From Clostridia bacterium (lineage in GTDB: Bacteria; Bacillota; Clostridia; Oscillospirales; Acutalibacteraceae): DNA of 64,000 nucleotides. The notes under the pieces were generated by a model, which was given only the letters and a program-made list of their open reading frames with translations, was not told the origin of the DNA and searched no databases. The DNA lies in NCBI GenBank assembly GCA_024404325.1, contig JAKSQC010000001.1:13340-77339 (forward strand), written 5' to 3'. Made by a program: the position numbers and the translations under genes. Of this stretch, positions 26,033 through 40,709 are shown one piece after another; the stretch's first letter is position 1, and the number at the start of each line of letters is the position of its first letter.

Positions 26033-26061
26033 TTGACATACGGTGTTTAGTGTGGTAATAT
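26033..26061 (+). promoter_or_regulatory. Sigma-A promoter P1 (drives T-box 1)
   Basis: TTGACA, 17 nt, then TAATAT preceded by TGG (extended -10). Confidence 0.65.
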
Positions 26062-26069
26062 AATTGCAA

Positions 26070-26339
26070 ATTTTAAAGGCTATGACGAAGACGGCTTTGC
26101 TTTTTTATTCAAGAGAGCGGATGTTTGGTGCAAATTCCGTATAAAAAATCAAAACAGCCCATCACTTCCGAGCCGGATAGCTGAAAATCACAGTAGGCGT
26201 ATCCCGTGATTGCTGCGTAAAGGCATAAGGGTTGTCAGACCCTGAGTGGCAGTATTTACTGCAATTTGAGTGGTACCGCGAGTGTATGAATTTTTCCACA
26301 CCCGTCTCAAAGCAAATGTTTTGAGACGGGTGTTTTTTT
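26070..26339 (+). promoter_or_regulatory. T-box leader 1, specifier AUC (Ile)
   Basis: Stem I base GGCT/AGCC has K-turn TGA..GA, an AGAGAG bulge and a GGTGCAA distal loop. The specifier layout is ATC-A-CTTCC-GA-GCC, with ATC at 26161-26163. The T-box sequence AATTTGAGTGGTACCGCG lies at 26263-26280. The terminator CACCCGTCTCAAA/TTTGAGACGGGTG (26299-26332) is followed by T7. Confidence 0.9.
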
Positions 26340-26355
26340 GCAGGAGGACTTTAAA

Positions 26356-28623
26356 ATGTCGACAGTAAAATCAAACAAACTAATGGAAGTTGCAACACGT
26401 ATTCGTGAAATGCGTCAGATTTTCGGTTTTACCGAAGAAGAAATGGCACAAAAAACCGAAGTGACTTTAAGTGAATATCAAGACTATGAAACAGGAAAAC
26501 TTGATTTTCCTTTTACCTTTATTCATAAATGTTCTCTTGCTTTTGGAATAGGAATTACAGACCTGCTTGAGGGACAAAGTGCCCACCTTTCGTCATATAC
26601 GGTAACAAGAAAAGGTCAAGGTACGCAGACGGCGGAAGAAGACGGCATTGAAATACGCAACTTAGCACCAATGTTCCGTAATAAGATAGCAGAACCTTAT
26701 TGGGTTAAATATGAATATAGTAAAGAACTTCAAAACAAGCCAATTCATTTAACAAAACATTCGGGACAGGAATTTGACCTTGTACTCAAAGGCAGACTGA
26801 AAGTACAAGTAGGTGATAATATAGAGTATTTAAGCGAGGGTGACAGTATCTACTACAACAGTTCTACCCCTCACGGTATGATTGCGGTAGACGGGGAAGA
26901 ATGTTTGTTTGTAGCGGTAGTTCTCCCCGGTGCTAATCAGGAAGAAATACTTATAAGAGATACCCTGCTGACGTCAAAAAACCACAACAAGAAACTTGTC
27001 AGCGAAAAGTTTGTAAGTGTTAAGGAAAATCAGGACGGCTATCCTATATCCATTAACTTTAAGAATGAAGACAAATTTAATTTTGCATTTGATATAGTAG
27101 ACGAGATAGCGAAACGTGAGCCTGACAAACTTGCCTTACTTCACATTTCACAGGATAAAACCGAACGCAGATTTACTTTTAACGATATTAAACGTGCGTC
27201 CAATCAGTGTGCAAACTACTTTAAGTCACTCGGCATTAAAAAGGGTGACAGGGTAATGTTGGTACTCAAACGCCACTATGAATTTTGGTTTTCAATCATT
27301 GCACTTCATAAATTAGGTGCAATAGTAATACCCGCAACAAATCAACTTCAAAAGCACGATTTTGAATATAGATTTAAAGCGGCAGGAGTAAGTGCGATAG
27401 TATGCACTTCCGACGGCGATGTTGCAAATCAGGTTGACTTGGCGTCTGAAAACTACCCCCAACTCACAACAAAAATAATAGTGGGCACAAAAAGAGACGG
27501 TTGGCACAACCTAAAGGAAGAATACAACATTTACAGTGCACACTTTTACCGCACCGAAGATACCCCCTGCGGAAACGAGCCTATGCTTATGTTCTTCACT
27601 TCGGGTACTACGGGATATCCTAAAATTGCAACCCACACATATAAATACCCGTTAGGTCACTATTTAACGGCTAAATATTGGCACGGAGTAAGTGATGACG
27701 GACTTCACCTTACAATATCCGATACGGGTTGGGGTAAAGCGTTATGGGGTAAACTCTACGGTCAGTGGCTATGTGAGGGAGCAGTATTTGCCTATGACTT
27801 TGACCGTTTCGATGCAAGCGAGATACTTCCGATGTTTGCAAAATATCAAATAACAACATTTTGTGCGCCGCCGACAATGCTTAGAATGATGATAAAACAG
27901 GATATATCGCATTATGACTTTTCATCCGTAAAGCGTATGACAACGGCAGGTGAGGCACTTAATCCTGAGGTTTACCGTCAGTTTGAAAAGGCGACGGGAC
28001 TTCAAATTATGGAGGGTTTCGGTCAAACCGAAACCACGCTTACCGTTGCAAACTTTATGGGCGGTTCTCATAAATTAGGTTCTATGGGCAGACCGTCACC
28101 GCTTTATGATATAGATATTATAAATGCCGAGGGCAAAAGCGTTGCAGACGGTGAAACGGGCGAAATCGTAATACGAACAGACAAAGAAGTCCCCTGCGGA
28201 CTGTTTACGGGATACTATAAAGACGAGCAAAAGACAAAAGAGGTATGGCATGACGGATATTACCACACGGGTGATTCGGCGTGGCGTGACGAGGACGGAT
28301 ATTATTGGTACGTAGGTAGAGTTGACGACGTAATCAAGTCTTCGGGTTACAGAATAGGGCCGTTTGAAATTGAAAGCGTTATTATGGAACTGCCTTACGT
28401 TTTAGAGTGTGGAGTATCTGCCGCCCCCGACGAGGTAAGAGGACAGGTAGTAAAAGCAAGCATTGTTCTTGTAAACGGCACTAAGCCTTCAGAGGAACTT
28501 AAAAAGGAAATTCAAAATTACGTAAAAACCCATACTGCACCTTATAAATATCCGCGTATAGTCGAGTTCAAAGACAGTCTGCCTAAAACTGTTAGTGGAA
28601 AAATACAGAGAAATCTGTTATAA
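26356..28623 (+). CDS. Three-domain fusion: XRE HTH + cupin + AMP-forming (medium/short-chain) acyl-CoA synthetase
   Basis: ATG 26356 lies 8 nt after AGGAGG. Residues ~10-75 are HTH_3-like. Residues ~100-195 are a cupin (HSGQEFDLVLKG...GDSIYYNSSTPHGM). The remainder has adenylate-forming motifs FTSGTTGYPK, GFGQTE, YHTGD, GRVDDVIKSSGYRIGPFEIE and PKTVSGKIQR. Confidence 0.9.
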   Translation: MSTVKSNKLMEVATRIREMRQIFGFTEEEMAQKTEVTLSEYQDYETGKLDFPFTFIHKCSLAFGIGITDLLEGQSAHLSSYTVTRKGQGTQTAEEDGIEIRNLAPMFRNKIAEPYWVKYEYSKELQNKPIHLTKHSGQEFDLVLKGRLKVQVGDNIEYLSEGDSIYYNSSTPHGMIAVDGEECLFVAVVLPGANQEEILIRDTLLTSKNHNKKLVSEKFVSVKENQDGYPISINFKNEDKFNFAFDIVDEIAKREPDKLALLHISQDKTERRFTFNDIKRASNQCANYFKSLGIKKGDRVMLVLKRHYEFWFSIIALHKLGAIVIPATNQLQKHDFEYRFKAAGVSAIVCTSDGDVANQVDLASENYPQLTTKIIVGTKRDGWHNLKEEYNIYSAHFYRTEDTPCGNEPMLMFFTSGTTGYPKIATHTYKYPLGHYLTAKYWHGVSDDGLHLTISDTGWGKALWGKLYGQWLCEGAVFAYDFDRFDASEILPMFAKYQITTFCAPPTMLRMMIKQDISHYDFSSVKRMTTAGEALNPEVYRQFEKATGLQIMEGFGQTETTLTVANFMGGSHKLGSMGRPSPLYDIDIINAEGKSVADGETGEIVIRTDKEVPCGLFTGYYKDEQKTKEVWHDGYYHTGDSAWRDEDGYYWYVGRVDDVIKSSGYRIGPFEIESVIMELPYVLECGVSAAPDEVRGQVVKASIVLVNGTKPSEELKKEIQNYVKTHTAPYKYPRIVEFKDSLPKTVSGKIQRNLL

Positions 28624-28637
28624 TTTATAAAAAGGTC

Positions 28638-28666
28638 TTGACAAATTAAAAAAGCAGTGGTATTAT
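28638..28666 (+). promoter_or_regulatory. Sigma-A promoter P2 (drives T-box 2)
   Basis: TTGACA, 17 nt, then TATTAT preceded by TGG. It starts 15 nt after the ACS1 stop. Confidence 0.65.
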
Positions 28667-28672
28667 ATCACT

Positions 28673-28988
28673 TAATTAAAGACTTTGACGAAGAGTGTAT
28701 AAAAATACGTCCTATGCCAAAGCATTTAAACTTGAACTTGAATGTTTTGGCATCAGAGAAATGACGGTTGGTGCAAGTCATCGGAAACGGTTTTTATATT
28801 TGTAGCTTCCGAGTCGGGAAGAAGAACGGGCAAAACCTTAGTAGAACTTCTCCGTGATTGCTGCGTAAATGCATAAGGGTTGTCAGACCCTGAGTGGCAG
28901 TATTTACTGCAATTTGAGTGGTACCGCGGGTGTTTAAGATTATCACACTCGTCTCAAAGTTATCATTGCTTTGGGACGGGTGTTTTTG
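28673..28988 (+). promoter_or_regulatory. T-box leader 2, specifier GUA (Val)
   Basis: Stem I base GACT/AGTC has K-turn TGA..GA, an AGAGA bulge and a GGTGCAA loop. The specifier layout is GTA-G-CTTCC-GA-GTC, with GTA at 28802-28804. The T-box sequence lies at 28911-28928. The terminator (28947-28959 / 28969-28981) is followed by T5. Confidence 0.9.
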
Positions 28989-29015: not shown

Positions 29016-31313
29016 ATGGGACAAAATAACGGTCTTGATTTTAAAATCAAAGAAATGTCTTCAAGAATTCGCGAACTTCGTGAAATCACGGGTTATACAA
29101 CCGAAGAAATGGCGAAAAAGACCGACGTCAGCACCGAGGAATATATAAAATGCGAAAACGGGGAGGCAGACCTTAACTTTGCTTTTATTTACCGTTGTGC
29201 CATTGCCTTTGGTGTGAACGTTACCGATATTATTGAAGGTGTAAGCCCGACGCTTACTTCTTATACTCTTACAAGAAGCGGTCAAGGTCAAAAGATAGAC
29301 CAAGCACACGGAATGGTATACTATAATTTAGCGGCTGCTTTTCAAAACAGAATAGCAGAGCCTTTATACGTTTGCAGTGCATACAGTGAAGAGGCACAAC
29401 ATAAAGATATAGAGTTGACAACACATTCAGGACAGGAATGTGATATAGTAGTTTCAGGTCATCTTACGGTGCAGGTAGGCCGCCACAAGGAAACATTGGG
29501 ACCCGGCGACAGTATTTATTATGACAGTTCCACACCTCACGGTATGATTGCGGTAAACGGTGAAGACTGCATATTTTACGCAATAGTACTTAATCCTACG
29601 GGCGAGCCGATACCCGAACTTTCAAGTACGGTTGAAAATGTTACTTTAAAAGAAACAAAACCGTCCAAAAAGGATAATAAGGAAAGAATATACCGTAAGT
29701 TTATAGACACCGAGGTTGACGAAAACGGCACACCTACAAAAATAACGTTTAAAAATGAAGATAAGTTTAATTTTGCATTTGATTTGGTGGACGCACTTGC
29801 AGACCGCGAACCCGATAAACTTGCAATGCTTCATATATCAAGGGATATGACAGAACGCCGTTTTACCTTTAAAGATATAAAAAAGGCATCTAATCAGTGT
29901 GCTAACTATTTTAAGTCTTTGGGCATTAAAAAAGGTGACAGAGTAATGCTTTGTCTTAAGCGTCACTATCAATTCTGGTTCTGTATGTTAGGTCTTAATA
30001 AACTCGGTGCTGTTGCGATACCTGCCGTAAATCAGTTGCAGGAACACGATTTTGAGTACCGTTTTAAGTCTGCCGGTATAAGTGCGGTTATTTGTACTGC
30101 CGACGGCGACACTGCACATCAAATGGACTTGGCGGCGGAAAAATGTCCCGACCTTACGATAAAACTTATAGTAAACGGTACGCGTGAGGGTTGGAAAAAC
30201 TTTGACGAAGAATACCCCCTTTTCAGCACACATTTTAAAAGAACCGCCGATTCACCCTGCGGTAATGACACTATGATTATGTATTTTACGTCGGGTACTT
30301 CGGGTTATCCGAAAATCGCAACCCATTCTCATAAGTATCCTTTAGGGCATTTCCATACTGCAAAGTATTGGCATCACGTTGACCCTGACGGACTTCACCT
30401 TACAATATCCGATACCGGTTGGGCAAAGGCTATGTGGGGTAAACTTTACGGACAGTGGCTATGCGAGGCGGCAACCTTTGTTTATGACTTTGACCGTTTT
30501 GATGCAAGCGAAATACTGCCGATGTTCGCAAAGTATAATATTACTACTTTTTGTGCACCGCCTACAATACTCAGAATGATGGTTAAGCAGGATATATCAA
30601 AGTATGATTTTTCATCGGTAAAGCATATGACTACGGCGGGAGAGGCGCTTAACCCCGAAGTTTACCGTCAGTTCAAAAATGCTACGGGACTTAAAATTAT
30701 GGACGGTTTCGGTCAAACCGAATCGACTATGATTATAGGAAATCTTGTAGGTATGCAACATAAATTAGGCTCTATGGGTAAACCCGCACCTATTTATGAC
30801 GTTGACCTTATTGATGAAAACGGTAACACGGTAGCCGTAGGCGAAACAGGTGAAATTGTTATAAACGTTAAAAACGGTGCACCTTGCGGACTGTTTAAGG
30901 GTTATTATAAAGACGAAGAAAAAACCAAAGAGGTCTGGCACGACGGATATTACCACACGGGTGATTCTGCGTGGCGTGATGAGGACGGATACTATTGGTA
31001 CGTAGGCAGAGTTGACGACGTAATCAAGTCTTCGGGTTACAGAATAGGGCCGTTTGAAATCGAAAGTGTTATTATGGAACTGCCTTACGTTTTAGAGTGC
31101 GGCGTATCAGCCGCCCCCGACGAGGTAAGAGGACAGGTAGTAAAGGCAAGCATTGTTCTTGTAAACGGCACTAAGCCTTCAGAGGAACTTAAAAAGGAAA
31201 TTCAAACTTATGTTAAAACACATACCGCACCTTATAAATATCCTCGTATAGTAGAATTCCGCGACAGTCTGCCTAAGACGGTTACGGGTAAAATACAAAG
31301 GAACAAACTTTAA
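29016..31313 (+). CDS. Paralogous XRE HTH + cupin + AMP-forming acyl-CoA synthetase fusion
   Basis: Same three-domain order as 26356-28623. Has FTSGTSGYPK, GFGQTE and YHTGD. The C-terminal ~115 aa are identical to the paralog. The start is ATG 29016; the ORF track start 28971 lies inside the T-box terminator. Confidence 0.9.
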   Translation: MGQNNGLDFKIKEMSSRIRELREITGYTTEEMAKKTDVSTEEYIKCENGEADLNFAFIYRCAIAFGVNVTDIIEGVSPTLTSYTLTRSGQGQKIDQAHGMVYYNLAAAFQNRIAEPLYVCSAYSEEAQHKDIELTTHSGQECDIVVSGHLTVQVGRHKETLGPGDSIYYDSSTPHGMIAVNGEDCIFYAIVLNPTGEPIPELSSTVENVTLKETKPSKKDNKERIYRKFIDTEVDENGTPTKITFKNEDKFNFAFDLVDALADREPDKLAMLHISRDMTERRFTFKDIKKASNQCANYFKSLGIKKGDRVMLCLKRHYQFWFCMLGLNKLGAVAIPAVNQLQEHDFEYRFKSAGISAVICTADGDTAHQMDLAAEKCPDLTIKLIVNGTREGWKNFDEEYPLFSTHFKRTADSPCGNDTMIMYFTSGTSGYPKIATHSHKYPLGHFHTAKYWHHVDPDGLHLTISDTGWAKAMWGKLYGQWLCEAATFVYDFDRFDASEILPMFAKYNITTFCAPPTILRMMVKQDISKYDFSSVKHMTTAGEALNPEVYRQFKNATGLKIMDGFGQTESTMIIGNLVGMQHKLGSMGKPAPIYDVDLIDENGNTVAVGETGEIVINVKNGAPCGLFKGYYKDEEKTKEVWHDGYYHTGDSAWRDEDGYYWYVGRVDDVIKSSGYRIGPFEIESVIMELPYVLECGVSAAPDEVRGQVVKASIVLVNGTKPSEELKKEIQTYVKTHTAPYKYPRIVEFRDSLPKTVTGKIQRNKL

Positions 31314-31315: not shown

Positions 31316-31981
31316 ATGGAAAACTTTAAGCGTATTACCCTTTTGTGCGGTCACTACGGAAGCGGTAAAACAAATATCGCGGTCAATATGGCATACGAAC
31401 TTAAAAAGAAATATTCAAATGTTGCCATAGCCGACCTCGATATAGTAAACCCGTACTTTCGCACCAAGGACAGCATAAAAGAGTTTGAAAAAAGGGATAT
31501 AAAGTTAATTTGCTCAAAATATGCAGGCTCTAATGTAGATATACCCGCCCTCCCACAGGAGATGTATGCACTTACAGACGATAGGCAAATGCACTGTATA
31601 ATAGACGTCGGCGGGGACGACAGAGGTGCGTTGGCACTCGGTCGCCTATCCCCTGCAATAAAAGAAGAAAACGATTATGATATGCTTATGGTTATAAACT
31701 GTTACCGTCCGCTGACGCGTGACGTACCCTCAACCATAAATATTATGCGTGAAATAGAAACCGCTTCGGGTATTAAGTTTACAGGTCTTATAAACAACTC
31801 AAATTTAGGTAAGCTTACAACAAAGCAAACGGTTATCGATTCACTTAAATTTGCCGACGGTGTTTCAAAGGCTTCGGGACTTCCGATATTTTGCACCGCA
31901 GTAAAACAAGGTTTATTTGACAGAAAAGACGGCAGTTTAAAAAACGTCTTTCCGATAGAACTTCAAGAAAACATATACTGA
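31316..31981 (+). CDS. Uncharacterised SIMIBI-class P-loop NTPase (CooC/GPN-loop-like)
   Basis: 221 aa with Walker A GHYGSGKT, DLDIVNPYF, Walker-B-like IIDVGGDD and an NNSN block. It starts 2 nt after the ACS2 stop. Confidence 0.7.
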   Translation: MENFKRITLLCGHYGSGKTNIAVNMAYELKKKYSNVAIADLDIVNPYFRTKDSIKEFEKRDIKLICSKYAGSNVDIPALPQEMYALTDDRQMHCIIDVGGDDRGALALGRLSPAIKEENDYDMLMVINCYRPLTRDVPSTINIMREIETASGIKFTGLINNSNLGKLTTKQTVIDSLKFADGVSKASGLPIFCTAVKQGLFDRKDGSLKNVFPIELQENIY

Positions 31982-31996
31982 TAAGGAGCGATGAAT

Positions 31997-32203
31997 ATGG
32001 CAAAACTTAAGTTCAAAACAGATTTTTGTAAAGGTTGCGGACTGTGTGTAGACGCTTGTCCAAAAAAACTGTTAAAACTCGCAACCGACAAAATCAATAA
32101 AAAGGGACATCATCCGGCAGAAATAACCGATCAAGATTCCTGTACGGGTTGCACAAGTTGTGCAATAATGTGTCCGGACTGTGTAATAACGGTAGAAAGG
32201 TAA
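31997..32203 (+). CDS. 2-oxoacid:ferredoxin oxidoreductase delta subunit (2x[4Fe-4S] ferredoxin)
   Basis: Has CKGCGLCVDACP and CTGCTSCAIMCP motifs. ATG 31997 lies 8 nt after AGGAG. Confidence 0.85.
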   Translation: MAKLKFKTDFCKGCGLCVDACPKKLLKLATDKINKKGHHPAEITDQDSCTGCTSCAIMCPDCVITVER

Positions 32204-32211: not shown

Positions 32212-33273
32212 ATGGCTGATAAAGTACTTATGAAAGGTAACGAAGCCTTAGCGGAAGCCGCAATATTAGCAGGTTGCCGTCACTACTTCGGTTATCCTAT
32301 CACCCCGCAGACAGAGGTTGCGGCTTATATGGCAAAAAAGATGCCGAAAATCGGCGGAACGTTTTTGCAGGCGGAAAGTGAAATTGCCGCTATAAATATG
32401 GTATACGGTGTTTCTTCGGCAGGTCACCGCGTTATGACATCATCTTCAAGCCCCGGAATTTCCTTAAAGGGCGAGGGAATATCATATCTTGCCGGTGCAG
32501 ACCTTCCTGCACTCGTAGTAAACGTACAGCGTGGGGGTCCGGGACTCGGAGGCATACAACCGAGCCAGTCCGACTATTTTCAGGCTACAAAGGGTGCCGC
32601 ACACGGCGACTTCCATATGATAGTATTAGCACCTGCATCTGTTCAGGAAATGGCAGAGCTGACCATTAAGGGATTTGAACTTGCAGACAAGTACAGAATG
32701 ACCTCTATGATTTTGGCAGACGGTACTATGGGACAGATGATGGAACCTGTTGACCTTGATTTTAAAATCACACCCGAACCCGAAAAGCCTTGGGCAACTA
32801 CGGGTACAAAACTCAAAAGAAATCATAACATAGTAAATTCTCTTTCCCTTGTTCCCGAAGAACTTGAACAACTCAATATAGCACGTTATGAGCGTTATAA
32901 GACGGTTGAAGAAAACGAATGTATGTATGAGGAATACTTAGTAGACGATGCCGATATAGTGCTTGTAGCATTCGGTATTACTTCGAGAGTTTCAAAACAC
33001 GCTATTGACAATGCAAGAGAACAAGGCGTAAAGGTCGGTCTTATCCGTCCCATTACCCTTTGGCCGTTCCCGAAAGCACCATTCCAAAAGGCAGTAGGAC
33101 ACGCCAAAGCATTTATAACGGTAGAACTTAATATGGGACAGATGATAGAGGACGTTAAACTTGCAACTAATTGTAAGGTTCCGGTACATCTTTGTAACCG
33201 TGTAGGCGGTATGATTCCTGACCATACACAGGTATATGATAAAATTATGGAAATCAACGAGGAGGTAAAATAA
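32212..33273 (+). CDS. 2-oxoacid:ferredoxin oxidoreductase alpha subunit (VorB/KorA-like)
   Basis: Has N-terminal KGNEALAEAAILAGCRHYFGYPITPQTE and MTSSSSPGISL. The start is ATG 32212; the ORF track start 32149 overlaps the delta gene. Confidence 0.88.
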   Translation: MADKVLMKGNEALAEAAILAGCRHYFGYPITPQTEVAAYMAKKMPKIGGTFLQAESEIAAINMVYGVSSAGHRVMTSSSSPGISLKGEGISYLAGADLPALVVNVQRGGPGLGGIQPSQSDYFQATKGAAHGDFHMIVLAPASVQEMAELTIKGFELADKYRMTSMILADGTMGQMMEPVDLDFKITPEPEKPWATTGTKLKRNHNIVNSLSLVPEELEQLNIARYERYKTVEENECMYEEYLVDDADIVLVAFGITSRVSKHAIDNAREQGVKVGLIRPITLWPFPKAPFQKAVGHAKAFITVELNMGQMIEDVKLATNCKVPVHLCNRVGGMIPDHTQVYDKIMEINEEVK

Positions 33274-33275: not shown

Positions 33276-34028
33276 ATGGTAGTATTTGAAAAACCGCACG
33301 CACTTACCGACGTGCCTTTACACTATTGCCCCGGTTGTACTCACGGTATCGTACATAGGCTCGTTGCCGAAGCAATCGACGAACTCGGAATTGAGGGACA
33401 GACAATAGGTATAGCACCCGTTGGTTGTTCGGTAATGGCTTACGATTACTTTAACTGCGATATGATAGAAGCCGCTCACGGACGTGCACCGGCAGTGGCA
33501 ACAGGCGTTAAAAGAGCCGACCCCGATAATCACATAGTATTTACCTATCAGGGCGACGGTGACCTTGCTTCCATAGGTATGGCTGAAACCGTACACGCAG
33601 CGGCAAGAAATGAAAATATAACCGTTATTTTTATAAACAATGCAATTTACGGTATGACAGGCGGTCAGATGGCACCTACTTCCCTGCCCGGTCAGGTTAC
33701 ACAGACTTCTCCTTACGGCAGAGATACATCCCACTGCGGTTATCCTATTAGGGTTTGCGAAATGCTCGCAACATTAGAAGGACCCGAGTATCTTGAAAGG
33801 GTAACCGTAAATAATGTTGCTAACGTACGCAAAGCAAAAAAGGCCATTAAAAAGGCTTTCCAAAACCAAATAGATAAAAAAGGTTTTTCACTAATAGAGG
33901 TTGTATCTTCCTGTCCTACCAACTGGGGTATGACACCGCAAGACGCACTTAAGTGGATAGACGATAATATGCTTCCATATTATCCTCTTGGCGTTTATAA
34001 AGACCGTTCTGCAAAGGAGGAAAAGTAA
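33276..34028 (+). CDS. 2-oxoacid:ferredoxin oxidoreductase beta subunit (TPP-binding)
   Basis: Has a CPGCTHG cluster ligand block and the GDGDLASIG...NNAIYGMTGGQ TPP motif. Confidence 0.88.
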   Translation: MVVFEKPHALTDVPLHYCPGCTHGIVHRLVAEAIDELGIEGQTIGIAPVGCSVMAYDYFNCDMIEAAHGRAPAVATGVKRADPDNHIVFTYQGDGDLASIGMAETVHAAARNENITVIFINNAIYGMTGGQMAPTSLPGQVTQTSPYGRDTSHCGYPIRVCEMLATLEGPEYLERVTVNNVANVRKAKKAIKKAFQNQIDKKGFSLIEVVSSCPTNWGMTPQDALKWIDDNMLPYYPLGVYKDRSAKEEK

Positions 34029-34570
34029 TGAAACTTCCAATACAGTGCTTATTTTCAGGCTTTGGCGGACAGGGTATCCTGTTTTCCGGCAAATTTATGG
34101 CATATAAGGGTATGATTGAGGATAAATTTGTATCATGGCTTCCTTCCTACGGTCCCGAAATGCGTGGCGGTACCGCAAGTTGCAGTGTGGTTATAAGCGA
34201 TAGGGAGATTGCATCTCCCATTATTTCAACACCCGATATTTTGGTTGCAATGAATTTACCGTCACTTGATAAGTACGAAAAAATCGTAAAAAAAGGCGGT
34301 ACAATATTTGTTGACTCAACCCTTATCGAAAGAAAGGTTGAAAGGGACGATGTAAACGTATATTATGTCCCTGCAACCAAACTTGCAAGCGATAATAATA
34401 TGCCGACTCTTGCAAATATGATACTTGTCGGTAAAATATTAAAGGTAAGAAATGAATATTCAGAAGAAAGTGTCCGTGCGGCTCTTACAAAGGTAGTTTC
34501 CGCAAAACACGCCGATTTGCTTGAAGTCAATATGAAAGCAATGCAAATAGGTGCTTCTTACGAGGAATAA
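34028..34570 (+). CDS. 2-oxoacid:ferredoxin oxidoreductase gamma subunit
   Basis: 180 aa with GFGGQGILFSGK and YGPEMRGG blocks. Its ATG overlaps the beta stop (ATGA-type junction). Confidence 0.85.
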   Translation: MKLPIQCLFSGFGGQGILFSGKFMAYKGMIEDKFVSWLPSYGPEMRGGTASCSVVISDREIASPIISTPDILVAMNLPSLDKYEKIVKKGGTIFVDSTLIERKVERDDVNVYYVPATKLASDNNMPTLANMILVGKILKVRNEYSEESVRAALTKVVSAKHADLLEVNMKAMQIGASYEE

Positions 34571-34589
34571 CAAGAAAGGAATTATTGCT

Positions 34590-35651
34590 ATGAATATCAG
34601 AGTTGAAAACACACAGCATCCGTCATCAATGCCGGGTAGTGAATTTGGATTCGGCAGAATTTTTTCAGACCATATGTTTATGATGGACTACAATGCAAAC
34701 GAGGGTTGGCATGATGCAAGAATAGTCCCGTTTGGAAGACTTTCCATTCACCCTGCTTCCACCGTACTTCACTACGGTGCAGAGATATTTGAGGGACTTA
34801 AGGCATACCGCCGTCCCGATGGCGGAGTACAACTTTTCAGACCTATTGAAAATATCCGCCGTATGAATGATTCGGCAGAGCGTTTGTGCTTACCGCAAAT
34901 TCCCGAAGATGAAGCTATGGAAATACTCACCACATTTATCAGTCACGAAAAGGAGTGGACACCGTCAGCCCCTGGAACAACACTTTACATTCGTCCTTTC
35001 CTGTTCGGTAACGATGAATCACTCGGCGTACACGCAGTGAAGAACGCTACTTTCGTAATTATTGCATCACCTACGGGAAGTTATTATAAAGAGGGCTTTA
35101 AGCCGGTACGCATTATGATTGAAGATGAGGACGTAAGAGCAGTACGAGGCGGTACGGGTTATGCTAAATGCGGAGGTAACTACGCAGCAAGCACACGTGC
35201 AGGAGAGAGAGCCGAACAGATGGGTTATTCTCAAGTACTTTGGCTTGACGGTGTTGAGCGTAAGTACATAGAGGAAGTAGGAGCAATGAACGTTATGTTC
35301 AAAATAAACGGCGAAATCGTTACTCCTAAACTTACAGGCTCAATACTCCCCGGTATTACAAGAAAGTCCTGTATTGAACTTTTAAGAAGCAAGGGTTATA
35401 AGGTTTCAGAGCGTCTGCTCAGTCTCCAAGAACTCGTAAGTGCTATGACTGACGGCACACTCGAGGAAGCTTGGGGTTGCGGAACAGCGGCAGTAGTATC
35501 ACCTATCGGTGAGCTTTGCTATAAAGATATTAAGTACGCTATCAACGGCGGTAAAATCGGTGAGCTCACACAAAGCCTTTACGATACCCTTACGGGTATA
35601 CAGTTTGGCAGAAGTGAAGACCCGTTCGGTTGGACTGTTCGTATAGACTAA
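34590..35651 (+). CDS. ilvE: Branched-chain amino acid aminotransferase (long, ~350-aa type)
   Basis: Has FGRIFSDHMF, YGAEIFEGLKAYR, GGTGYAKCGGNYAAS, EEVGAMNVMF and PGITR blocks. Confidence 0.9.
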   Translation: MNIRVENTQHPSSMPGSEFGFGRIFSDHMFMMDYNANEGWHDARIVPFGRLSIHPASTVLHYGAEIFEGLKAYRRPDGGVQLFRPIENIRRMNDSAERLCLPQIPEDEAMEILTTFISHEKEWTPSAPGTTLYIRPFLFGNDESLGVHAVKNATFVIIASPTGSYYKEGFKPVRIMIEDEDVRAVRGGTGYAKCGGNYAASTRAGERAEQMGYSQVLWLDGVERKYIEEVGAMNVMFKINGEIVTPKLTGSILPGITRKSCIELLRSKGYKVSERLLSLQELVSAMTDGTLEEAWGCGTAAVVSPIGELCYKDIKYAINGGKIGELTQSLYDTLTGIQFGRSEDPFGWTVRID

Positions 35652-35665: not shown

Positions 35666-35694
35666 TTGACATATAATGATTTATGTGGTATAGT
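35666..35694 (+). promoter_or_regulatory. Sigma-A promoter P3 (drives T-box 3)
   Basis: TTGACA, 17 nt, then TATAGT preceded by TGG. It starts 15 nt after the ilvE stop. Confidence 0.65.
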
Positions 35695-35975: not shown

Positions 35976-35996
35976 TTTTAAAAGGATTGGTGACTT

Positions 35997-37376
35997 ATGA
36001 ATAATATTAAAATTTCAGATTTAACTCTTTGTCTTGTAAGCAGTGATTTGACATTTAAGGAAAAAATAGAAATTGCAAGACAACTTGAAAAGTTACAACT
36101 TGACTGCATTGAACTTCCCGAAATCAAAAAGGTTAAATCTGATACCCTTTTTATACGCACTGTTTCTTCTTTTCTTAAAAACAGTATACTTTCGGTTTGT
36201 GCGGGAAGCAGTATAGAGAGTATAGACAATGCCGTTACGGCACTTAGTGTATGCAAAAAGCCGATGATAAGAATAGAACTTCCGGTATCAACTGTAAGAA
36301 TGGAATATGATTTTCATAAAAAAGCACCAAAAATGCTCGAATGGATAAATAAAACCGTTTGCTATGCTTCGCAAAAATGTGACGTTGAGTTTTGTGCACT
36401 TGATGCCACAAGAGCCGAGTCTGAATTTTTAATTGAAGCACTGAAAACCGCAGAGTCGGCAGGTGCAAAGATAATAACCGTTTGCGATGATGCAGGCGAA
36501 ATGCTTACCGATGAATTTACCGAATTTATAAAGCGTATAAAGAGCAATATATCAACGCCGATATACATTAACTGTAATAATAAAAACGGTATGGCACTTT
36601 CCCTTGCGGCTATTTCAATAAAGAACGGCGATGCACAAGGTGTTAAGACTTCGGTAAACGGTGACACCGTAAGTTTAGAGAATATATCAACTTTTATAAG
36701 AAACTGCGGAGAAAAACACAGTATAATATCAAATATAAGATACACAGAACTTTACCGTACTATCTCCCAAATCAAACGTATTACGGGAAATGTTACTGAA
36801 AGCAATGAAAAGACCGTATCCACAGTTACTTCAAACGATGAAATAAAACTCGATAAAAATGATGACAAAAACACCGTAATCACAATGGTGGCAAGACTCG
36901 GTTATGACCTTTCAAAAGAGGATGAAGACAATGTTTATGAGCAGTTTTTGCGTGTAGCCGATAAAAAGACAGTCGGAGCAAAGGAACTTGATGCGATAGT
37001 AATCAGTTCTGCTTTACAAGTACCGCCCACCTATAAACTTGATAATTATATAGTAAACAGCGGTAATTCTATTTCCTCAAGTGCACAGGTAACGCTTAAA
37101 CACTTTGACAGTGTAACTCAAGGCATAAGCATAGGCGACGGACCTATTGACGCCGCATTTTTGGCTATTGAGCAGATAATAGGTTGTCACTACGATTTAG
37201 AGGACTTCCAAATTCAAACCGTAACCGAGGGCAAAGAGGCAATCGGTTCTGCAATAATCAAACTGCGTTCGGCAGGTAAAATATATTCAGGCAACGGCAT
37301 TTCAACCGATATAATAGAGGCAAGCATAAGGGCGTACTTAAACGCACTTAACAAAATTGCCTACGAGGAGGTATAA
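35997..37376 (+). CDS. 2-isopropylmalate synthase-like protein with degenerate active site (pseudoenzyme) and intact LeuA C-terminal regulatory domain
   Basis: It is colinear with LeuA along its whole length, but the catalytic motifs are replaced: DTTLRDGEQ becomes DLTLCLVSS, HCHNDLG becomes NCNNKNG, and GIGERAGN becomes NGDTVSLEN. The C-terminus (GDGPIDAAFLAIEQI..., ISTDIIEASIRAYLNALNK) matches the LeuA_dimer/allosteric domain. Confidence 0.8.
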   Translation: MNNIKISDLTLCLVSSDLTFKEKIEIARQLEKLQLDCIELPEIKKVKSDTLFIRTVSSFLKNSILSVCAGSSIESIDNAVTALSVCKKPMIRIELPVSTVRMEYDFHKKAPKMLEWINKTVCYASQKCDVEFCALDATRAESEFLIEALKTAESAGAKIITVCDDAGEMLTDEFTEFIKRIKSNISTPIYINCNNKNGMALSLAAISIKNGDAQGVKTSVNGDTVSLENISTFIRNCGEKHSIISNIRYTELYRTISQIKRITGNVTESNEKTVSTVTSNDEIKLDKNDDKNTVITMVARLGYDLSKEDEDNVYEQFLRVADKKTVGAKELDAIVISSALQVPPTYKLDNYIVNSGNSISSSAQVTLKHFDSVTQGISIGDGPIDAAFLAIEQIIGCHYDLEDFQIQTVTEGKEAIGSAIIKLRSAGKIYSGNGISTDIIEASIRAYLNALNKIAYEEV

Positions 37377-37378
37377 CG

Positions 37379-39916
37379 GTGAAATTTTCTTTTTCCACAA
37401 AGGGTTGGCATAACTGTACCTTTGAAGATTTTGTAAGAATTGCAAATGAGCTTCAGTTTCAGGGTATAGAACTGCATAACATCCATAACGAGGCATTTAC
37501 CAAAAAAGGCGGTGCTTTACACGATTATACTGCGGCGGCTACTTTGCGTTATTTAAAAGAAAAAAATCTTTCACTGCCGTGTGTTGATGCGATAGGCGAC
37601 ATTGCAAGTGCCGACAGTGCTGATAATTTAAAGCAGGAAATTTCGCAGTGTATAGAGGTTGCATCACATCTTAAAATTTCATATATAAGGCTAAAGGCGG
37701 AAAAAAGTGACGATATAGATACTGCTACCAAAAACGTAATAAACCTTTTAGAGCAGATGCTACCCATCGCCGAGCAGGAAAATATCACTTTTCTTATTGA
37801 AACTTCTGGACTTTTTGCAAGTTCACTTAAACTCAGGGATATACTCGAATATTTTGCATGTGATAATTTGGCGGCTTTATGGAATTTATCCGATGCTTAT
37901 TTTGAAGCAGGAGAGAGTGCAGAAGAAATAATAAAGAATTTAGGTGCTTATGTACGCCACGTTCACGTAAACGATGCCGTTAAAACCGAAAACGGTACAA
38001 ATTACTGTCTTTTAGGCGAGGGAGAAGTTCCGTTTGAAGAAATTATGCTTGCCTTAAAATCGGTTAATTATGACGGCTTTTTATCGCTTGTATGGGACCC
38101 TGCTTGGTGCGAGGAACTTGACGATATTGAAATACTGTTTTCACAGTTTACAAATTATATGAAGCAGTTTGGCACAACCTACCGCAGGAATAAAACACTT
38201 TATTATAACAAGGCACGCACAGGCGAATTTGTATGGAAAAAAGACCTGCTTATAGACGAAACGTTTTCGCAGGTTCTTGACAGAATGGTTGAGGAATTCC
38301 CCGACCAATATGCCTTTAAGTATACAACACTTGATTACACAAGGACATATTCACAATTCCGTGATGATGTAAATACCTTTGCAAGAGCGTTAGTTGCACT
38401 CGGTGTTAAAAGCGGTACACACGTAGCGGTTTGGGCATCAAATGTACCGCAGTGGTATATAGCCTTTTGGGCGACGGTAAAGTTAGGTGCGGTTCTTGTA
38501 ACGGTAAATACCGCATACAAAATTCACGAGGTAGAGTATCTTTTAAAGCAGTCTGATACGCATACAATAATTATGACGCAGGGTGCTAAAGATACAAACT
38601 ACGGTGAAATTATTGCACAGCTTTGTCCTGAACTTGAAAACAAGAAACCATCTGGGCACCTCCACGCACGCAAACTGCCGTTTTTGAGAAATGTTATTAC
38701 CGTGGGATTTCGTCAAAAGGGTTGCCTTATGTGGAATGATGCATTAGAATTTTCATCACAGGTATCGCTTGAAACGGTAAACCGTATGGCAGATAGTGTA
38801 AATCATAATGACGTATGCAATATGCAGTATACTTCGGGTACAACGGGATTTCCTAAGGGCGTTATGCTGACGCATTATAATATAGTAAATAACGGTAAAT
38901 GTATAGGCGACCGTATGGACTTATCAACTGCTGACAGAATGATGGTACAAGTGCCTATGTTCCACTGTTTTGGAATGGTACTTGCAATGACGGCTACTAT
39001 GACGCACGGCGGTACGCTTTTACCTCTGCCCTATTTCTCACCGAAACCCGCACTTTCCTGTATAAACAACGAAAGAATAACGGCATTTCACGGTGTTCCC
39101 ACAATGTTTATAGCCCTCCTTGAGCACCCCGACTTTGCAAAAACCGACTTTTCTTATATGCGTACGGGAATTATGGCAGGAAGTCCGTGTCCTATTTCTG
39201 CTATGCGTGACGTTATTGATAAAATGAATATGCGTGACATAACAATAGTTTACGGTCAGACCGAAGCCTCCCCCGGTTGTACTATGAGTTCTACCGATGA
39301 TTCCATAGAGATAAGGGTGGGTACTGTCGGCAGACCTCTGCCAGAAATTGAATGTAAGATAGTAGACCCCGAAACGGGAGAAGAATGTCCTATAGGTGTT
39401 ACGGGTGAGTTTATAGCACGCGGTTATAATATAATGAAAGGCTATTATAAAATGCCTAAGGCCACAGCATCTGCCATTGACGCTAAAGGTTGGCTTCACA
39501 CCGGCGACCTTGCCTGCAAAACCGAGGACGGCAACTTCCGTATTACGGGCAGACTTAAAGATATGATAATAAGGGGCGGAGAAAATATCTATCCAAAGGA
39601 AATAGAGGAATTTATTTATACGCATAAAAAGGTCAGTGACGTTCAGGTTGTAGGCGTTCCCGACGAGCAGTACGGCGAGGAAATTTTAGCCTGCATTATA
39701 TTAAAAGAAAACGAGCAAATGACCGTTGATGAGATGAAAACGTATATTGCGGAAAATATGGCACGTCATAAAGTACCGAAATATATTGAGTTTGTGTCCG
39801 AATTTCCGATGAACGCCGCAGGCAAAATTTTGAAATATAAAATAAGAGAGGATGCTGTTAAAAAGTTGGGTTTAAACGCAAACGACAGCATAGTTATGGA
39901 CAATGGTAAACGGTAA
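37379..39916 (+). CDS. Fusion of xylose-isomerase-like TIM barrel (AP_endonuc_2-type) with a FadD-like AMP-forming acyl-CoA ligase
   Basis: Uses a GTG start 7 nt after GAGGAGG. The N-terminal ~270 aa are TIM-barrel-like (GIELHN..., IRLKA..., FLIETSG, HVHVND, SLVWDP). The C-terminal ~560 aa carry YTSGTTGFPKGV, VYGQTE, LHTGDL and GRLKDMIIRGGENIYPKEIE. Confidence 0.85.
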   Translation: MKFSFSTKGWHNCTFEDFVRIANELQFQGIELHNIHNEAFTKKGGALHDYTAAATLRYLKEKNLSLPCVDAIGDIASADSADNLKQEISQCIEVASHLKISYIRLKAEKSDDIDTATKNVINLLEQMLPIAEQENITFLIETSGLFASSLKLRDILEYFACDNLAALWNLSDAYFEAGESAEEIIKNLGAYVRHVHVNDAVKTENGTNYCLLGEGEVPFEEIMLALKSVNYDGFLSLVWDPAWCEELDDIEILFSQFTNYMKQFGTTYRRNKTLYYNKARTGEFVWKKDLLIDETFSQVLDRMVEEFPDQYAFKYTTLDYTRTYSQFRDDVNTFARALVALGVKSGTHVAVWASNVPQWYIAFWATVKLGAVLVTVNTAYKIHEVEYLLKQSDTHTIIMTQGAKDTNYGEIIAQLCPELENKKPSGHLHARKLPFLRNVITVGFRQKGCLMWNDALEFSSQVSLETVNRMADSVNHNDVCNMQYTSGTTGFPKGVMLTHYNIVNNGKCIGDRMDLSTADRMMVQVPMFHCFGMVLAMTATMTHGGTLLPLPYFSPKPALSCINNERITAFHGVPTMFIALLEHPDFAKTDFSYMRTGIMAGSPCPISAMRDVIDKMNMRDITIVYGQTEASPGCTMSSTDDSIEIRVGTVGRPLPEIECKIVDPETGEECPIGVTGEFIARGYNIMKGYYKMPKATASAIDAKGWLHTGDLACKTEDGNFRITGRLKDMIIRGGENIYPKEIEEFIYTHKKVSDVQVVGVPDEQYGEEILACIILKENEQMTVDEMKTYIAENMARHKVPKYIEFVSEFPMNAAGKILKYKIREDAVKKLGLNANDSIVMDNGKR

Positions 39917-40709
39917 ACTTTTTGTTATTGATGCACACTGCCACGTCTACCCCGATAAAATTGCAACCATAGCATCGGGCAATACCGACCGTTTTTACGA
40001 TACAGTATCTAAACACGATGGCAAGGTGGGTACGCTCCTTGATTTAAAAGAGGAAAGCGGTATAGACCGCTTTTTGGTGCAGTCAGTAGCAACCACGCCG
40101 AAACAGGTACAAAGAATAAATCAGTTTATTGCCGATACCGTAAATAACAGTAACGGTATTATGACGGGACTTGGTACTCTCCACCCTGACAGTGCAGATT
40201 TAAAGGCGGACGTAATGCAAATAAAGCAACTTGGTCTTCACGGGGTAAAACTGCACCCCGATATCCAACAGTTTAAAATTGATGATTACAGATGTCTTAA
40301 AATTTATGAACTCTGCGAGCAGGAAAATTTACCTGTTCTTATGCACACGGGTGACAACAGATATGATTTTTCCAATCCAAACCGTCTTTTACCCGTTATA
40401 AAAATATTTGATAAATTAACCCTTGTAGCCGCCCATCTCGGCGGATATTCGGTGTGGGAAGAAGCAGTACAAAAACTTGCAGGTATTAAAAATCTGTATT
40501 TTGACTGTTCATCATCATTTTTTTGGTTAAACCCAAAACGTGCAAAGGAGATAATTGAAATTTACGGTACTGACCGTGTATTATTCGGAAGTGACTATCC
40601 GATGTGGTCGCCCAAAGCAGAACTTGATACCTTGTTATCTCTTGGCTTTGGCGATGATGATTTAAAGATGATTTTATCTGAAAATGCTAAAAAAATTTAT
40701 AATATTTAA
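39903..40709 (+). CDS. Amidohydro_2-family metal-dependent TIM-barrel enzyme (hydrolase/decarboxylase superfamily)
   Basis: Has IDAHCHVYP (HxH), LHPD, MHTGD, AHLGG and FGSDYP. It overlaps the upstream gene by 14 nt. Confidence 0.8.
   Translation: MVNGKLFVIDAHCHVYPDKIATIASGNTDRFYDTVSKHDGKVGTLLDLKEESGIDRFLVQSVATTPKQVQRINQFIADTVNNSNGIMTGLGTLHPDSADLKADVMQIKQLGLHGVKLHPDIQQFKIDDYRCLKIYELCEQENLPVLMHTGDNRYDFSNPNRLLPVIKIFDKLTLVAAHLGGYSVWEEAVQKLAGIKNLYFDCSSSFFWLNPKRAKEIIEIYGTDRVLFGSDYPMWSPKAELDTLLSLGFGDDDLKMILSENAKKIYNI

Follow-up and report, generated by a model that had tools for sequence, protein, structure and literature searches.

A predicted T-box-gated gene block for making isoleucine, valine, and leucine from branched short-chain fatty acids in a rumen or gut Clostridia bacterium

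A 14.7-kb block of genes and RNA leaders (positions 26033 to 40709, all features on the + strand) likely constitutes a salvage regulon that converts exogenous 2-methylbutyrate, isobutyrate, and (probably) isovalerate to isoleucine, valine, and leucine, with one T-box per branch. The block lies in a 64,000-nt window, the whole stretch of DNA analyzed, on contig JAKSQC010000001.1 of assembly GCA_024404325.1, and all coordinates are window positions. It most likely enables its host, an uncultured rumen or gut Clostridia bacterium, to make the three amino acids from scavenged branched short-chain fatty acids. A preliminary description had proposed this route from branched acids to amino acids; every checkable element of it held, and comparative sequence data strengthen the prediction. 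The features are as follows.

26033..26061, + strand: Ile-unit promoter, TTGACA-17-TAATAT with a TG extended -10
26073..26333, + strand: Ile T-box leader including terminator (specifier AUC at 26161-26163, terminator at 26298-26333)
26356..28623, + strand: lig1, HTH(XRE)-cupin-acyl-CoA synthetase, 755 aa (Pfam; best NCBIfam match MbcS)
28638..28666, + strand: Val-unit promoter, beginning 15 nt past the lig1 stop codon
28676..28983, + strand: Val T-box leader including terminator (specifier GUA at 28802-28804, terminator at 28945-28983)
29016..31313, + strand: lig2, paralogous HTH-cupin-acyl-CoA synthetase, 765 aa (Pfam; best NCBIfam match MbcS)
31316..31981, + strand: orphan SIMIBI-class P-loop NTPase, 221 aa (weak CbiA/ParA Pfam matches)
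31991..32203, + strand: vorD, 2x[4Fe-4S] delta subunit, a small ferredoxin
32212..33273, + strand: alpha subunit, NCBIfam "VorB," POR_N plus PFOR_II
33276..34028, + strand: beta subunit, TPP-binding
34028..34570, + strand: gamma subunit, POR domain
34551..35651, + strand: ilvE, branched-chain amino acid aminotransferase, class IV (start codon probably downstream of 34551)
35666..35694, + strand: Leu-unit promoter, beginning 15 nt past the ilvE stop codon
35706..35969, + strand: Leu T-box leader including terminator (specifier CUC at 35796-35798, terminator at 35936-35969)
35997..37376, + strand: pseudo-LeuA, HMGL-like barrel plus LeuA_dimer domain
37379..39916, + strand: lig3, TIM domain fused to a PRK12583-like acyl-CoA ligase
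39903..40709, + strand: Amidohydro_2 metallo-enzyme, 268 aa, metal ligands conserved

In the mechanism that we propose, the block would be read as three head-to-tail transcription units, each with a sigma-A consensus promoter and a terminating T-box leader. T-boxes respond to uncharged cognate tRNA, the sign of a scarce amino acid, by switching on supply genes for that amino acid; here, each leader's antiterminator would be stabilized by the matching uncharged tRNA (tRNA-Ile, tRNA-Val, or tRNA-Leu), allowing transcription to continue into the downstream genes. Behind the Ile gate, the AMP-forming ligase lig1, with Gly at a pocket-aligned position, would produce 2-methylbutyryl-CoA, and behind the Val gate lig2, with Ala at that position and a pocket presumably one methyl smaller, would produce isobutyryl-CoA. 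The Val gate would further control the P-loop NTPase, the four-subunit VOR-type oxidoreductase, which may form 2-oxoacids from acyl-CoA, reduced ferredoxin, and CO2, and IlvE, which would transaminate these 2-oxoacids to amino acids. The Leu gate would control a ligase of a different family, a dead LeuA with a leucine-binding regulatory domain, and an Amidohydro_2 enzyme; a separate ligase family for leucine may be needed because MbcS/Macs-type enzymes are poor on isovalerate. 2-Oxoacid:ferredoxin oxidoreductases are reversible and AMP-forming ligases drive carboxylate activation, and the T-boxes' response to starvation, taken with this type of ligase, favors operation toward synthesis. We infer this direction of flux, the substrates, and the use of VOR and IlvE in common by all three branches; since these enzymes sit behind one gate, starvation for another of the amino acids would call for basal expression, read-through, or another copy of the enzymes.

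The three T-box leaders were placed where they had been described by a covariance-model search with Rfam RF00230, all on the + strand: Ile at 26073-26312 (88.9 bits, E = 4.6e-20), Val at 28676-28959 (74.6 bits, E = 1.9e-16), and Leu at 35706-35944 (111.6 bits, E = 7.7e-24). In the window, only the Leu leader exceeds the RF00230 gathering score of 93; orthologous leaders at all three positions exceed it in other species, and Rfam's model also confirms the leaders in Ruminococcus difficilis, an isolate that carries the cluster, and in six further loci. An additional 39-nt hairpin in stem I (28712-28752) lowers the score of the Val leader. Covariance-model alignment returned the same specifiers as the preliminary description, AUC-A at 26161, GUA-G at 28802, and CUC-A at 35796, and the antiterminator bulge is UGGU in all three leaders, implying discriminator base A, consistent with tRNA-Ile, tRNA-Val, and tRNA-Leu. 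One detail of the preliminary description, a single box sequence for every leader, needs correction: in leaders 1 and 2 the box is GAGTGGTACCGCG instead of GGTGGTACCGCG. The terminators reported after each leader are the three best terminator matches within the block, and the promoters are likewise its three best + strand promoter matches; the shared architecture attributed to them is real but amounts to the ordinary sigma-A consensus with an extended -10, with no special signature. This promoter architecture is kept upstream of lig1 in related loci. No terminator is present between lig1 and the Val promoter or between ilvE and the Leu promoter.

The cluster is present in at least 581 species-level genomes, nearly all from rumen or gut Oscillospirales. 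The genes are conserved together as a set, and across the 80 loci compared Ile-, Val-, and Leu-specific T-boxes consistently gate the same three genes. A T-box immediately precedes lig1 in 64 of 71 loci, lig2 in 58 of 64, and pseudo-LeuA in 30 of 37; none precedes an internal gene in the 80 loci, except for a single motif match upstream of ilvE (1/49). Specifier conservation spans ~60 species: all 66 aligned orthologous Ile leaders carry ATC, Val leaders carry GTA or in a few cases GTC, and Leu leaders carry CTC or in a few cases CTG. VOR and IlvE lie behind the Val gate, or in five loci behind the Ile gate instead. The Leu module occurs in several placements and orientations around the core, and its repeated rearrangement around this conserved core argues for a functional link; no other genes are conserved adjoining the cluster in related loci.

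All domain architectures named in the preliminary description were recovered, including the delta ferredoxin subunit at 31991-32203. The proposal of dedicated Ile and Val ligases is supported by their placement in the MbcS/MacsMa family, the one characterized family with specificity for 2-methylbutyrate and isobutyrate, and by covariation of one residue with the T-box specifier. The best PDB match of the lig1 ligase domain is MacsMa (3ETC, 627 bits), and both proteins score far short of the 850-bit MbcS equivalog cut-off (lig1, 443; lig2, 452). The paralogs share 78% identity in the ligase domain and 46 to 51% in the HTH and cupin domains. Only one ligase-domain position consistently separates them, Gly460 in lig1 and Ala470 in lig2, which aligns with Acs Val310, a residue that we take to belong to the acetate/acyl pocket. 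Gly accompanies Ile (ATC) T-boxes in 66/66 cases and Ala accompanies Val (GTA/GTC) T-boxes in 54/54, a covariation that compares two orthologous groups rather than many independent events. MacsMa prefers 2-methylbutyrate (PMC10455477), and MbcS activates 2-methylbutyrate and isobutyrate, is poor on isovalerate and butyrate, and has no activity on acetate (PMC10026030). From these sequence relationships, lig1 is predicted to be a 2-methylbutyrate-CoA ligase and lig2 an isobutyrate-CoA ligase. More speculatively, the HTH-cupin modules of lig1 and lig2, and pseudo-LeuA in partnership with lig3, could sense end product or substrate at the first committed step.

The assignments of a VOR-type enzyme and IlvE both pass curated NCBIfam cut-offs (alpha subunit against NF005507 VorB, 539.5 bits, cut-off 399; IlvE against NF009897, 463.7 bits, cut-off 307). 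The NTPase has no NCBIfam match and no PDB sequence match, and its AF2 model (pLDDT 85) resembles SRP GTPases and ATPase-type HypB (TM ~0.55). It was found in 64 loci, always just ahead of the oxidoreductase genes when those are present, and we speculate that it helps the oxidoreductase to mature or acts as its partner.

Assignments in the Leu module are less clear than those of the Ile and Val branches. The LeuA-like protein is dead, as had been claimed: its barrel lacks the catalytic R/D, HxH, and E motifs, a loss conserved in ~40 orthologs. Its best-conserved part is the C-terminal regulatory LeuA_dimer domain, making it a candidate leucine sensor, and it pairs 1:1 with lig3 in 40 loci. By elimination and from the Leu T-box only, lig3 is predicted to be an isovalerate-CoA ligase. 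Residues 1-280 of lig3 form a xylose-isomerase-like TIM domain that shows poor conservation and lacks some of the canonical metal ligands. The Amidohydro_2 enzyme is probably active, judging from its retained metal ligands; its AF2 model (pLDDT 93) is nearest to ACMSD-type decarboxylases and the uncharacterized structures 3IRS and 3CJP. In several genomes its gene lies elsewhere, after vorC or ilvE or before pseudo-LeuA.

These features leave some room, though we consider it rather unlikely, for a reading that keeps the proposed Ile and Val branches but has the Leu module salvage another precursor (an ester, lactone, amide, or hydroxy- or keto-acid derivative). This precursor would require the Amidohydro_2 enzyme, possibly along with the TIM domain, either ahead of its activation to a CoA ester or afterward. 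Three parts of the module, namely pseudo-LeuA, the TIM domain, and the Amidohydro_2 enzyme, have no role in the minimal three-step route yet are conserved, which hints that the Leu branch may use extra or different chemistry; the amidohydrolase appears, with all its metal ligands, to be catalytically competent, and its modeled fold is nearest to reversible decarboxylases and lactonases. We found no characterized close homolog of lig3 and no characterized isovalerate ligase in its family. Set against this reading, the variable placement of the amidohydrolase gene means that it is not tied to lig3, the TIM domain is degenerate, rumen bacteria are classically known to make leucine from isovalerate, and poor use of isovalerate by MbcS-type enzymes would alone explain a different ligase.

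Two further readings concern the purpose of the whole block. It is improbable that the ligases chiefly supply acyl-CoA primers for branched-chain membrane fatty acids, with the T-boxes serving as a proxy for low keto-acid-derived primer, even though MbcS, the nearest named family, plays this role in Staphylococcus aureus (PMC10026030), ruminococci are mentioned as building branched acids into long-chain fatty acids (PMC7709123), and acyl-CoAs from the block could also feed FabH. Co-transcription of the VOR-type oxidoreductase and IlvE with the Val ligase would be pointless if primers were made from acids taken up from outside, and switching on by uncharged tRNA is sensible only with VOR and IlvE running toward the amino acid. 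The pseudo-LeuA regulatory domain and the presence of a separate gate for each amino acid likewise suggest a role in amino acid homeostasis. A dual use for amino acids and lipid primers is likely, but would not be the primary logic. That the block is instead catabolic, with IlvE, VOR, and the ligases fermenting branched-chain amino acids to branched acids, seems very improbable. VOR and IlvE are, as general knowledge has it, commonly oxidative in proteolytic Clostridia and archaea, but the T-boxes here switch on at amino acid scarcity, and AMP-forming ligases conserve no energy and are effectively irreversible toward acyl-CoA. Fermenting organisms rely on ADP-forming synthetases or on a phosphotransacylase with a kinase; the block contains none of these enzymes, nor are any of them conserved neighbors of the cluster in related loci.

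The leaders resemble the RF00230 T-boxes of Firmicutes ilv-leu and aminoacyl-tRNA synthetase operons in their stem I K-turn, specifier loop, AG bulge, distal loop, UGGN antiterminator bulge, intrinsic terminator, and use of AUC, GUA, and CUC for Ile, Val, and Leu. The genes controlled here, however, are not those of de novo biosynthesis, tRNA synthetases, or transporters but encode carboxylate-CoA ligases together with a ferredoxin oxidoreductase and several accessory proteins, under three gates of different specificity placed in series in one co-linear block without inter-unit terminators. The lig1 and lig2 ligase domains are close homologs of MbcS of S. aureus and MacsMa of Methanosarcina acetivorans (PDB 3ETC) and, like Macs, retain the pocket Trp and Gly in place of Acs Trp414; unlike these enzymes, they bear an N-terminal XRE-HTH plus cupin module (~215 aa) and form two specialized paralogs (Gly versus Ala) under Ile and Val T-boxes, and they are predicted to serve the synthesis of amino acids and not, as MbcS does, the supply of lipid primers. 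The oxidoreductase has all four subunits (delta, alpha, beta, and gamma) of the OFOR family member VOR (2-oxoisovalerate:ferredoxin oxidoreductase, EC 1.2.7.7) but is predicted to run reductively (carboxylating), is preceded by the orphan SIMIBI NTPase, and is under T-box control. Pseudo-LeuA shares with LeuA (2-isopropylmalate synthase, which has a leucine-feedback regulatory domain) the HMGL-like TIM barrel, the C-terminal LeuA_dimer domain, and leucine-responsive control. It is nevertheless not a LeuA, since every ortholog has lost the catalytic Arg/Asp, HxH, and Glu; strong conservation is confined to the regulatory domain, and a CoA ligase is its obligate neighbor. Allison and Bryant reportedly showed that rumen bacteria make branched-chain amino acids from these acids by reductive carboxylation, and this classical route (MetaCyc "L-isoleucine biosynthesis V") has the same steps of acyl-CoA activation, ferredoxin-dependent carboxylation, and transamination. 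It is known from labeling and physiology, with no genes or regulation assigned for these bacteria in the searchable literature, where, in line with the claim of novelty made earlier, we also found no description of a T-box-gated ligase/VOR/IlvE system; as late as 2020, a paper (PMC7709123) described the reverse reaction as "not proven yet." In contrast, we propose a gene cluster and its control, which, if correct, would supply the genes and control logic for a pathway known physiologically for 60 years.

Each of the three units of the cluster opens with a T-box leader that aligns over the full length of the Rfam covariance model RF00230 (model positions 1-219 of 219), and stem I with its K-turn, the specifier loop, the AG bulge, and the distal loop are aligned to the model in all three. 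Specifiers were read from these alignments as the codon and one further base, after which come the basal helix (3′ strand) and the GAG of the K-turn. The leaders and their specifiers are as follows:

26073-26312, + strand: Ile T-box leader (RF00230, 88.9 bits, E 4.6e-20)
26161, + strand: specifier AUC-A, in the Ile leader
28676-28959, + strand: Val T-box leader (RF00230, 74.6 bits, E 1.9e-16)
28802, + strand: specifier GUA-G, in the Val leader
35706-35944, + strand: Leu T-box leader (RF00230, 111.6 bits, E 7.7e-24)
35796, + strand: specifier CUC-A, in the Leu leader

Within the window, only the Leu leader reaches the Rfam gathering threshold for RF00230 (93 bits), with the Ile and Val leaders below it. 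The Val leader falls short because a 39-nt extra hairpin inserted in its stem I (28712-28752, + strand) costs score. In a sample of other loci, the model used at its gathering threshold recovers leaders at the orthologous positions, and the Ile and Val leaders of other species score 95 to 107 bits. The T-box sequence UGGUACCGCG is present in all three leaders, and the antiterminator bulge of each is UGGU, which implies a discriminator base A compatible with tRNA-Ile, tRNA-Val, and tRNA-Leu. By the established T-box mechanism, in which uncharged cognate tRNA brings about antitermination, each leader would terminate transcription unless its uncharged cognate tRNA paired with the specifier and the UGGU bulge.

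The three top plus-strand promoter matches of the block lie at 26033, 28638, and 35666, and its three top terminator matches are those of the leaders (26298-26333, 28945-28983, and 35936-35969), each of which overlaps the 3′ half of the antiterminator, making the two structures mutually exclusive, and is followed by a U-run. The preliminary description had placed a promoter, a T-box leader, and a terminator at each of these three places and had read the specifiers as Ile, Val, and Leu; the covariance-model, promoter, and terminator searches bear it out on every one of these points, and ORF and Pfam analysis recovered the domain architectures that it had described for the genes. A search of the plus strand found no terminator between the stop codon of lig1 (28623) and the Val promoter, and none between the stop codon of ilvE (35651) and the Leu promoter, and therefore the three units lie in series.

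This arrangement recurs widely. A scan with lig1 against one genome per species found at least 581 loci with the cluster; the best 80 of these come almost entirely from metagenome-assembled genomes, with rumen, hindgut, and feces as sources, and are labeled Acutalibacteraceae, Ruminococcaceae, Oscillospiraceae, or unclassified Eubacteriales/Clostridia. A T-box lies directly 5′ of lig1 in 64/71 loci, of lig2 in 58/64, and of the gene for pseudo-LeuA, the LeuA-like protein heading the Leu unit, in 30/37, while ilvE has one upstream in 1/49 loci and the other internal genes have none. The specifier is ATC in all 66 aligned Ile leaders, GTA nearly throughout the Val leaders (GTC in a few), and mostly CTC in the Leu leaders (CTG in a few). 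In about half of the Ile orthologs (related loci L005, L006, L011, L017, and ∼30 others), the base 3′ of the specifier is C (ATC-C), a departure from the usual conserved purine; the Ile leader of the window has A.

Gene order in the core of the cluster (lig1, lig2, P-loop gene, vorD-A-B-C, ilvE) is almost invariant. The Leu module (pseudo-LeuA, lig3, and amidohydrolase) adjoins this core in several placements and orientations, a classic signature of functional coupling. The position of the Amidohydro_2 gene varies as well: it may follow lig3, vorC, or ilvE or precede pseudo-LeuA (L013, L048, L063, L036, and L045 versus the window), and it is a member of the whole cluster rather than strictly of the Leu unit. 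When all ORFs of the 80 loci were clustered, no further conserved neighbors (transporters, ferredoxin, or Rnf) were found; the other recurrent ORF clusters had no match to window proteins and resembled shadow ORFs antisense to cluster genes. The cultured Ruminococcus difficilis (locus L081; GCA_016680995.1, JAEQMG010000149.1) has the stretch from lig2 to the amidohydrolase in unchanged order, with a Leu T-box (CUC) at L081:5516-5802 that passes the Rfam threshold at 108.9 bits, and thus offers a cultured carrier for experiments.

The two ligases of the Ile and Val units and the P-loop gene that follows them are located as follows:

26356-28623, + strand: lig1, with XRE-HTH, cupin, and AMP-binding ligase domains (Pfam)
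29016-31313, + strand: lig2, with XRE-HTH, cupin, and AMP-binding ligase domains (Pfam)
31316-31981, + strand: P-loop protein, a generic SIMIBI NTPase (structure model, pLDDT 85)

Both lig1 and lig2 contain AMP-binding and AMP-binding_C domains (Pfam). Their best NCBIfam match is MbcS, at 443.5 and 452.2 bits, short of the equivalog cutoff of 850, and by this comparison they are relatives of MbcS and not equivalogs. The best solved relative of the pair is PDB 3ETC (627 bits), which is MacsMa of Methanosarcina acetivorans, an enzyme with 2-methylbutyrate as its preferred substrate (PMC10455477); MbcS acts on 2-methylbutyrate and isobutyrate but uses isovalerate and butyrate poorly and acetate not at all (PMC10026030). 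Residues G556/G566 of the two ligases align with Trp414 of Acs, where Gly is a stated trait of medium-chain enzymes, and pocket roles have been described for that site and for Macs Trp259 (PMC10455477). This alternative Trp is kept in the window proteins, with the Trp of their AKYW motif aligning with that of the Macs AKYW.

The ligase domains of lig1 and lig2 are 78% identical, compared with 46% for the HTH and 51% for the cupin domains. Across the loci, 11 positions are at least 90% conserved within each paralog group but differ between the groups, and 10 of the 11 fall in the HTH-cupin module. In the ligase domain, a single position discriminates, occupied by Gly460 in lig1 and Ala470 in lig2 (motif DTGW[G/A]K); MacsMa has Gly there. 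It aligns with Acs Val310, one of the residues, along with Thr311, Val386, and Trp414, that we take to line the acetate pocket (the Acs numbering used here is internally consistent at Lys609 and Trp414). Specifier and residue covary without exception, every ATC leader pairing with Gly (66/66) and every GTA or GTC leader with Ala (54/54), although these represent two orthologous groups and the counts are not independent events. That the only ligase residue to separate the paralogs is absolutely conserved and aligns with a pocket position is nonetheless telling. Should this position face the pocket as it does in Acs, the Val-gated enzyme would have a pocket one methyl smaller, which is the difference between isobutyrate and 2-methylbutyrate.

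The HTH-cupin modules have a mean identity of 60 to 68% within each paralog group, and their paralog-specific divergence suggests that each paralog may read a signal of its own. Comparison with PDB gave only weak XRE and cupin matches for this module. No conserved palindrome that could serve as an HTH operator was found in ∼160 aligned promoter regions, which share only a consensus −35 box, an extended −10 box, and A/T-rich upstream tracts. The motif AAACTTTAA, 5′ of the Val promoter, was considered as an operator and set aside, as it is conserved coding sequence for the C terminus of lig1.

Downstream of lig2 and the P-loop gene, the Val unit encodes all four subunits of a VOR-type oxidoreductase, namely, delta (ferredoxin), alpha, beta (TPP-binding), and gamma. 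The alpha subunit passes the VorB model NF005507 (539.5 bits versus a cutoff of 399), and the beta and gamma subunits match generic OFOR models below their cutoffs. The set of four subunits and the VorB match point to a VOR-type enzyme, with carboxylation of branched substrates as its predicted activity. IlvE passes both NF009897 (463.7 versus a cutoff of 307) and TIGR01123 (379 versus 250). The P-loop protein has no sequence relative in NCBIfam or PDB, and a fold search with its model returned generic SIMIBI relatives only, at a TM of ∼0.55 to SRP GTPases and ATPase-type HypB.

The Leu unit differs in composition. As the preliminary description had claimed, its LeuA-like protein is catalytically dead: DTTLRDGEQ is replaced by DLTLCLVSS, the HxH motif by NCN (NCNNKNGMA), and the Glu of EDATR by Leu (ALDATR), and the best LeuA model gives 257 bits versus a cutoff of 532. 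These losses are conserved across ∼40 orthologs. The protein retains a C-terminal LeuA_dimer domain (PF08502, E 9.5e-30, profile positions 4-130 of 131), and conservation within the protein is highest in this LeuA regulatory domain. Since the catalytic losses are conserved, the regulatory domain is the best kept, and pseudo-LeuA pairs 1:1 with lig3 across loci, we infer that pseudo-LeuA might be a leucine sensor acting on lig3. The latter is a fusion of a xylose-isomerase-like TIM domain, with only weak sugar-epimerase-like matches in PDB, to a ligase from outside the family of lig1 and lig2 (best match, PRK12583; 685 bits versus a cutoff of 832). The use of one ligase family for Ile and Val and another for Leu would follow from the preference of MbcS and Macs for alpha-methyl acids and their poor use of isovalerate, and we infer isovalerate as the lig3 substrate by elimination. 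The third member of the module, the Amidohydro_2 protein (39903-40709, + strand; PF04909, 110 bits), has an invariant set of metal ligands (H12, H14, H118, H148, H178, and D231), in line with the HxH, His, His, and Asp ligands of this superfamily on a TIM barrel. Its structure model has a TM of 0.7 to 0.8 to family members in a fold search, with ACMSD-type reversible decarboxylases and uncharacterized amidohydrolases such as 3IRS and 3CJP as the nearest folds. The model thus places it in the ACMSD/LigI-like superfamily, a fold that fixes no specific function.

Together, these proteins could convert branched-chain carboxylates to amino acids in three steps. An AMP-forming ligase would activate the carboxylate to its acyl-CoA, VOR would reductively carboxylate the acyl-CoA to the 2-oxoacid with reduced ferredoxin and CO2, and IlvE would transaminate the 2-oxoacid to the amino acid. 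Induction by starvation, combined with AMP-forming and effectively irreversible ligases, argues for the direction from acid to amino acid. A catabolic reading of the same genes is contradicted both by the T-box logic and by the energetics of AMP-forming ligases, and we reject it. The acyl-CoAs may also serve, secondarily, as lipid primers of the kind associated with MbcS, but this leaves the co-induction of VOR and IlvE on starvation unexplained. For the Leu branch, use of a precursor different from isovalerate is rather unlikely but has some standing, because the minimal route leaves three of the conserved components without a task. In the biosynthetic reading that we favor, VOR and IlvE would serve more than one branch. 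They lie only behind the Val gate in the window. In five other loci (L049, L064, L072, L074, and L079), the P-loop gene, vor, and ilvE come straight after one ligase of the Gly type that has an Ile (ATC) T-box, and neither a second ligase nor a Val T-box intervenes; the gate ahead of VOR and IlvE is thus the Ile gate there, and the shared enzymes ride with whichever ligase is upstream.

A more speculative extension, possible if on balance improbable, would give each of the conserved accessory components a role. The HTH-cupin ligases lig1 and lig2 might be BirA-like enzyme/repressors, or allosteric enzymes, reading Ile versus Val, or one acid versus the other; a domesticated, dead LeuA would be the leucine sensor of lig3, and the P-loop NTPase would be a dedicated partner enabling VOR to work in carboxylation. 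Together with the serial T-boxes, this would create a two-layer AND logic, with one layer reporting demand for the amino acid and the other reporting that precursor is on hand, or that product is not in surplus. If true, it would be a new style of pathway control, with a dedicated sensor on each first-step ligase.

The remainder of the 64-kb window contains no ilv or leu genes and carries housekeeping genes, including the his operon (17252-24515). The latter is headed by an apparent HisZ-HisG fusion, a 527-amino-acid ORF with a HisZ-like (tRNA-synt_His) domain and HisG (22932-24515, − strand). Beyond it lies a membrane H+-translocating pyrophosphatase (15120-17207, − strand), which could recoup energy from the PPi that the three AMP-forming ligases release; other genomes show no linkage between it and the cluster. 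On the other side, a YkuD L,D-transpeptidase gene (40727-41569, + strand) starts 17 nt past the amidohydrolase stop codon, such that cotranscription is possible; in other genomes, the cluster lacks it. A transporter of the sodium:solute symporter family, 6 kb 3′ of the block (46595-48142, − strand), could import carboxylates and is not conserved with the cluster. Farther along are a 640-amino-acid ORF with GerAC N- and C-terminal domains and a Spore_permease (GerAB-like) domain beside a GerA gene, possibly a fused germinant-receptor subunit (51001-52923, − strand), and a tRNA with a long variable arm whose anticodon reads GGA (Ser) by eye (56657-56747, − strand), with a WYL-domain regulator just upstream (56793-57797).

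Fiber-degrading Oscillospirales of the rumen and gut need isobutyrate, 2-methylbutyrate, and isovalerate, the “isoacids” that are supplemented in ruminant nutrition and cross-fed in the human gut. To our knowledge, the searchable literature assigns neither genes nor regulation to this requirement. In NCBI, the cluster proteins are named “AMP-binding protein,” “hypothetical protein,” and “amidohydrolase family protein,” and with such generic annotation we would expect metabolic reconstructions to miss the route and mispredict branched-chain amino acid auxotrophy. The cluster offers candidate genes for every step of the branched-acid route, and the three T-box specifiers together with the Gly/Ala residue provide a marker that would predict the pairing of acid and amino acid in hundreds of uncultured species. 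Its HTH-cupin fusions, pseudo-LeuA, orphan NTPase, and Amidohydro_2 enzyme are leads to new regulatory or enzymatic mechanisms.

The physiology of converting branched acids to amino acids is classical, reportedly going back to labeling work on rumen bacteria by Allison and Bryant. In a 2020 study of Prevotella, formation of amino acids from branched acids, the reverse reaction, was still described as “not proven yet” (PMC7709123). We found no description of a T-box link to this route, of the cluster, or of its fusions in the searchable literature (subscription-only papers fall outside it), and the cluster is absent from the text of Wels 2008. The enzyme families and the T-box mechanism are individually known; what this analysis adds is a well-supported assignment of genes and a regulon to an old pathway, with several conserved components as yet unexplained by it.
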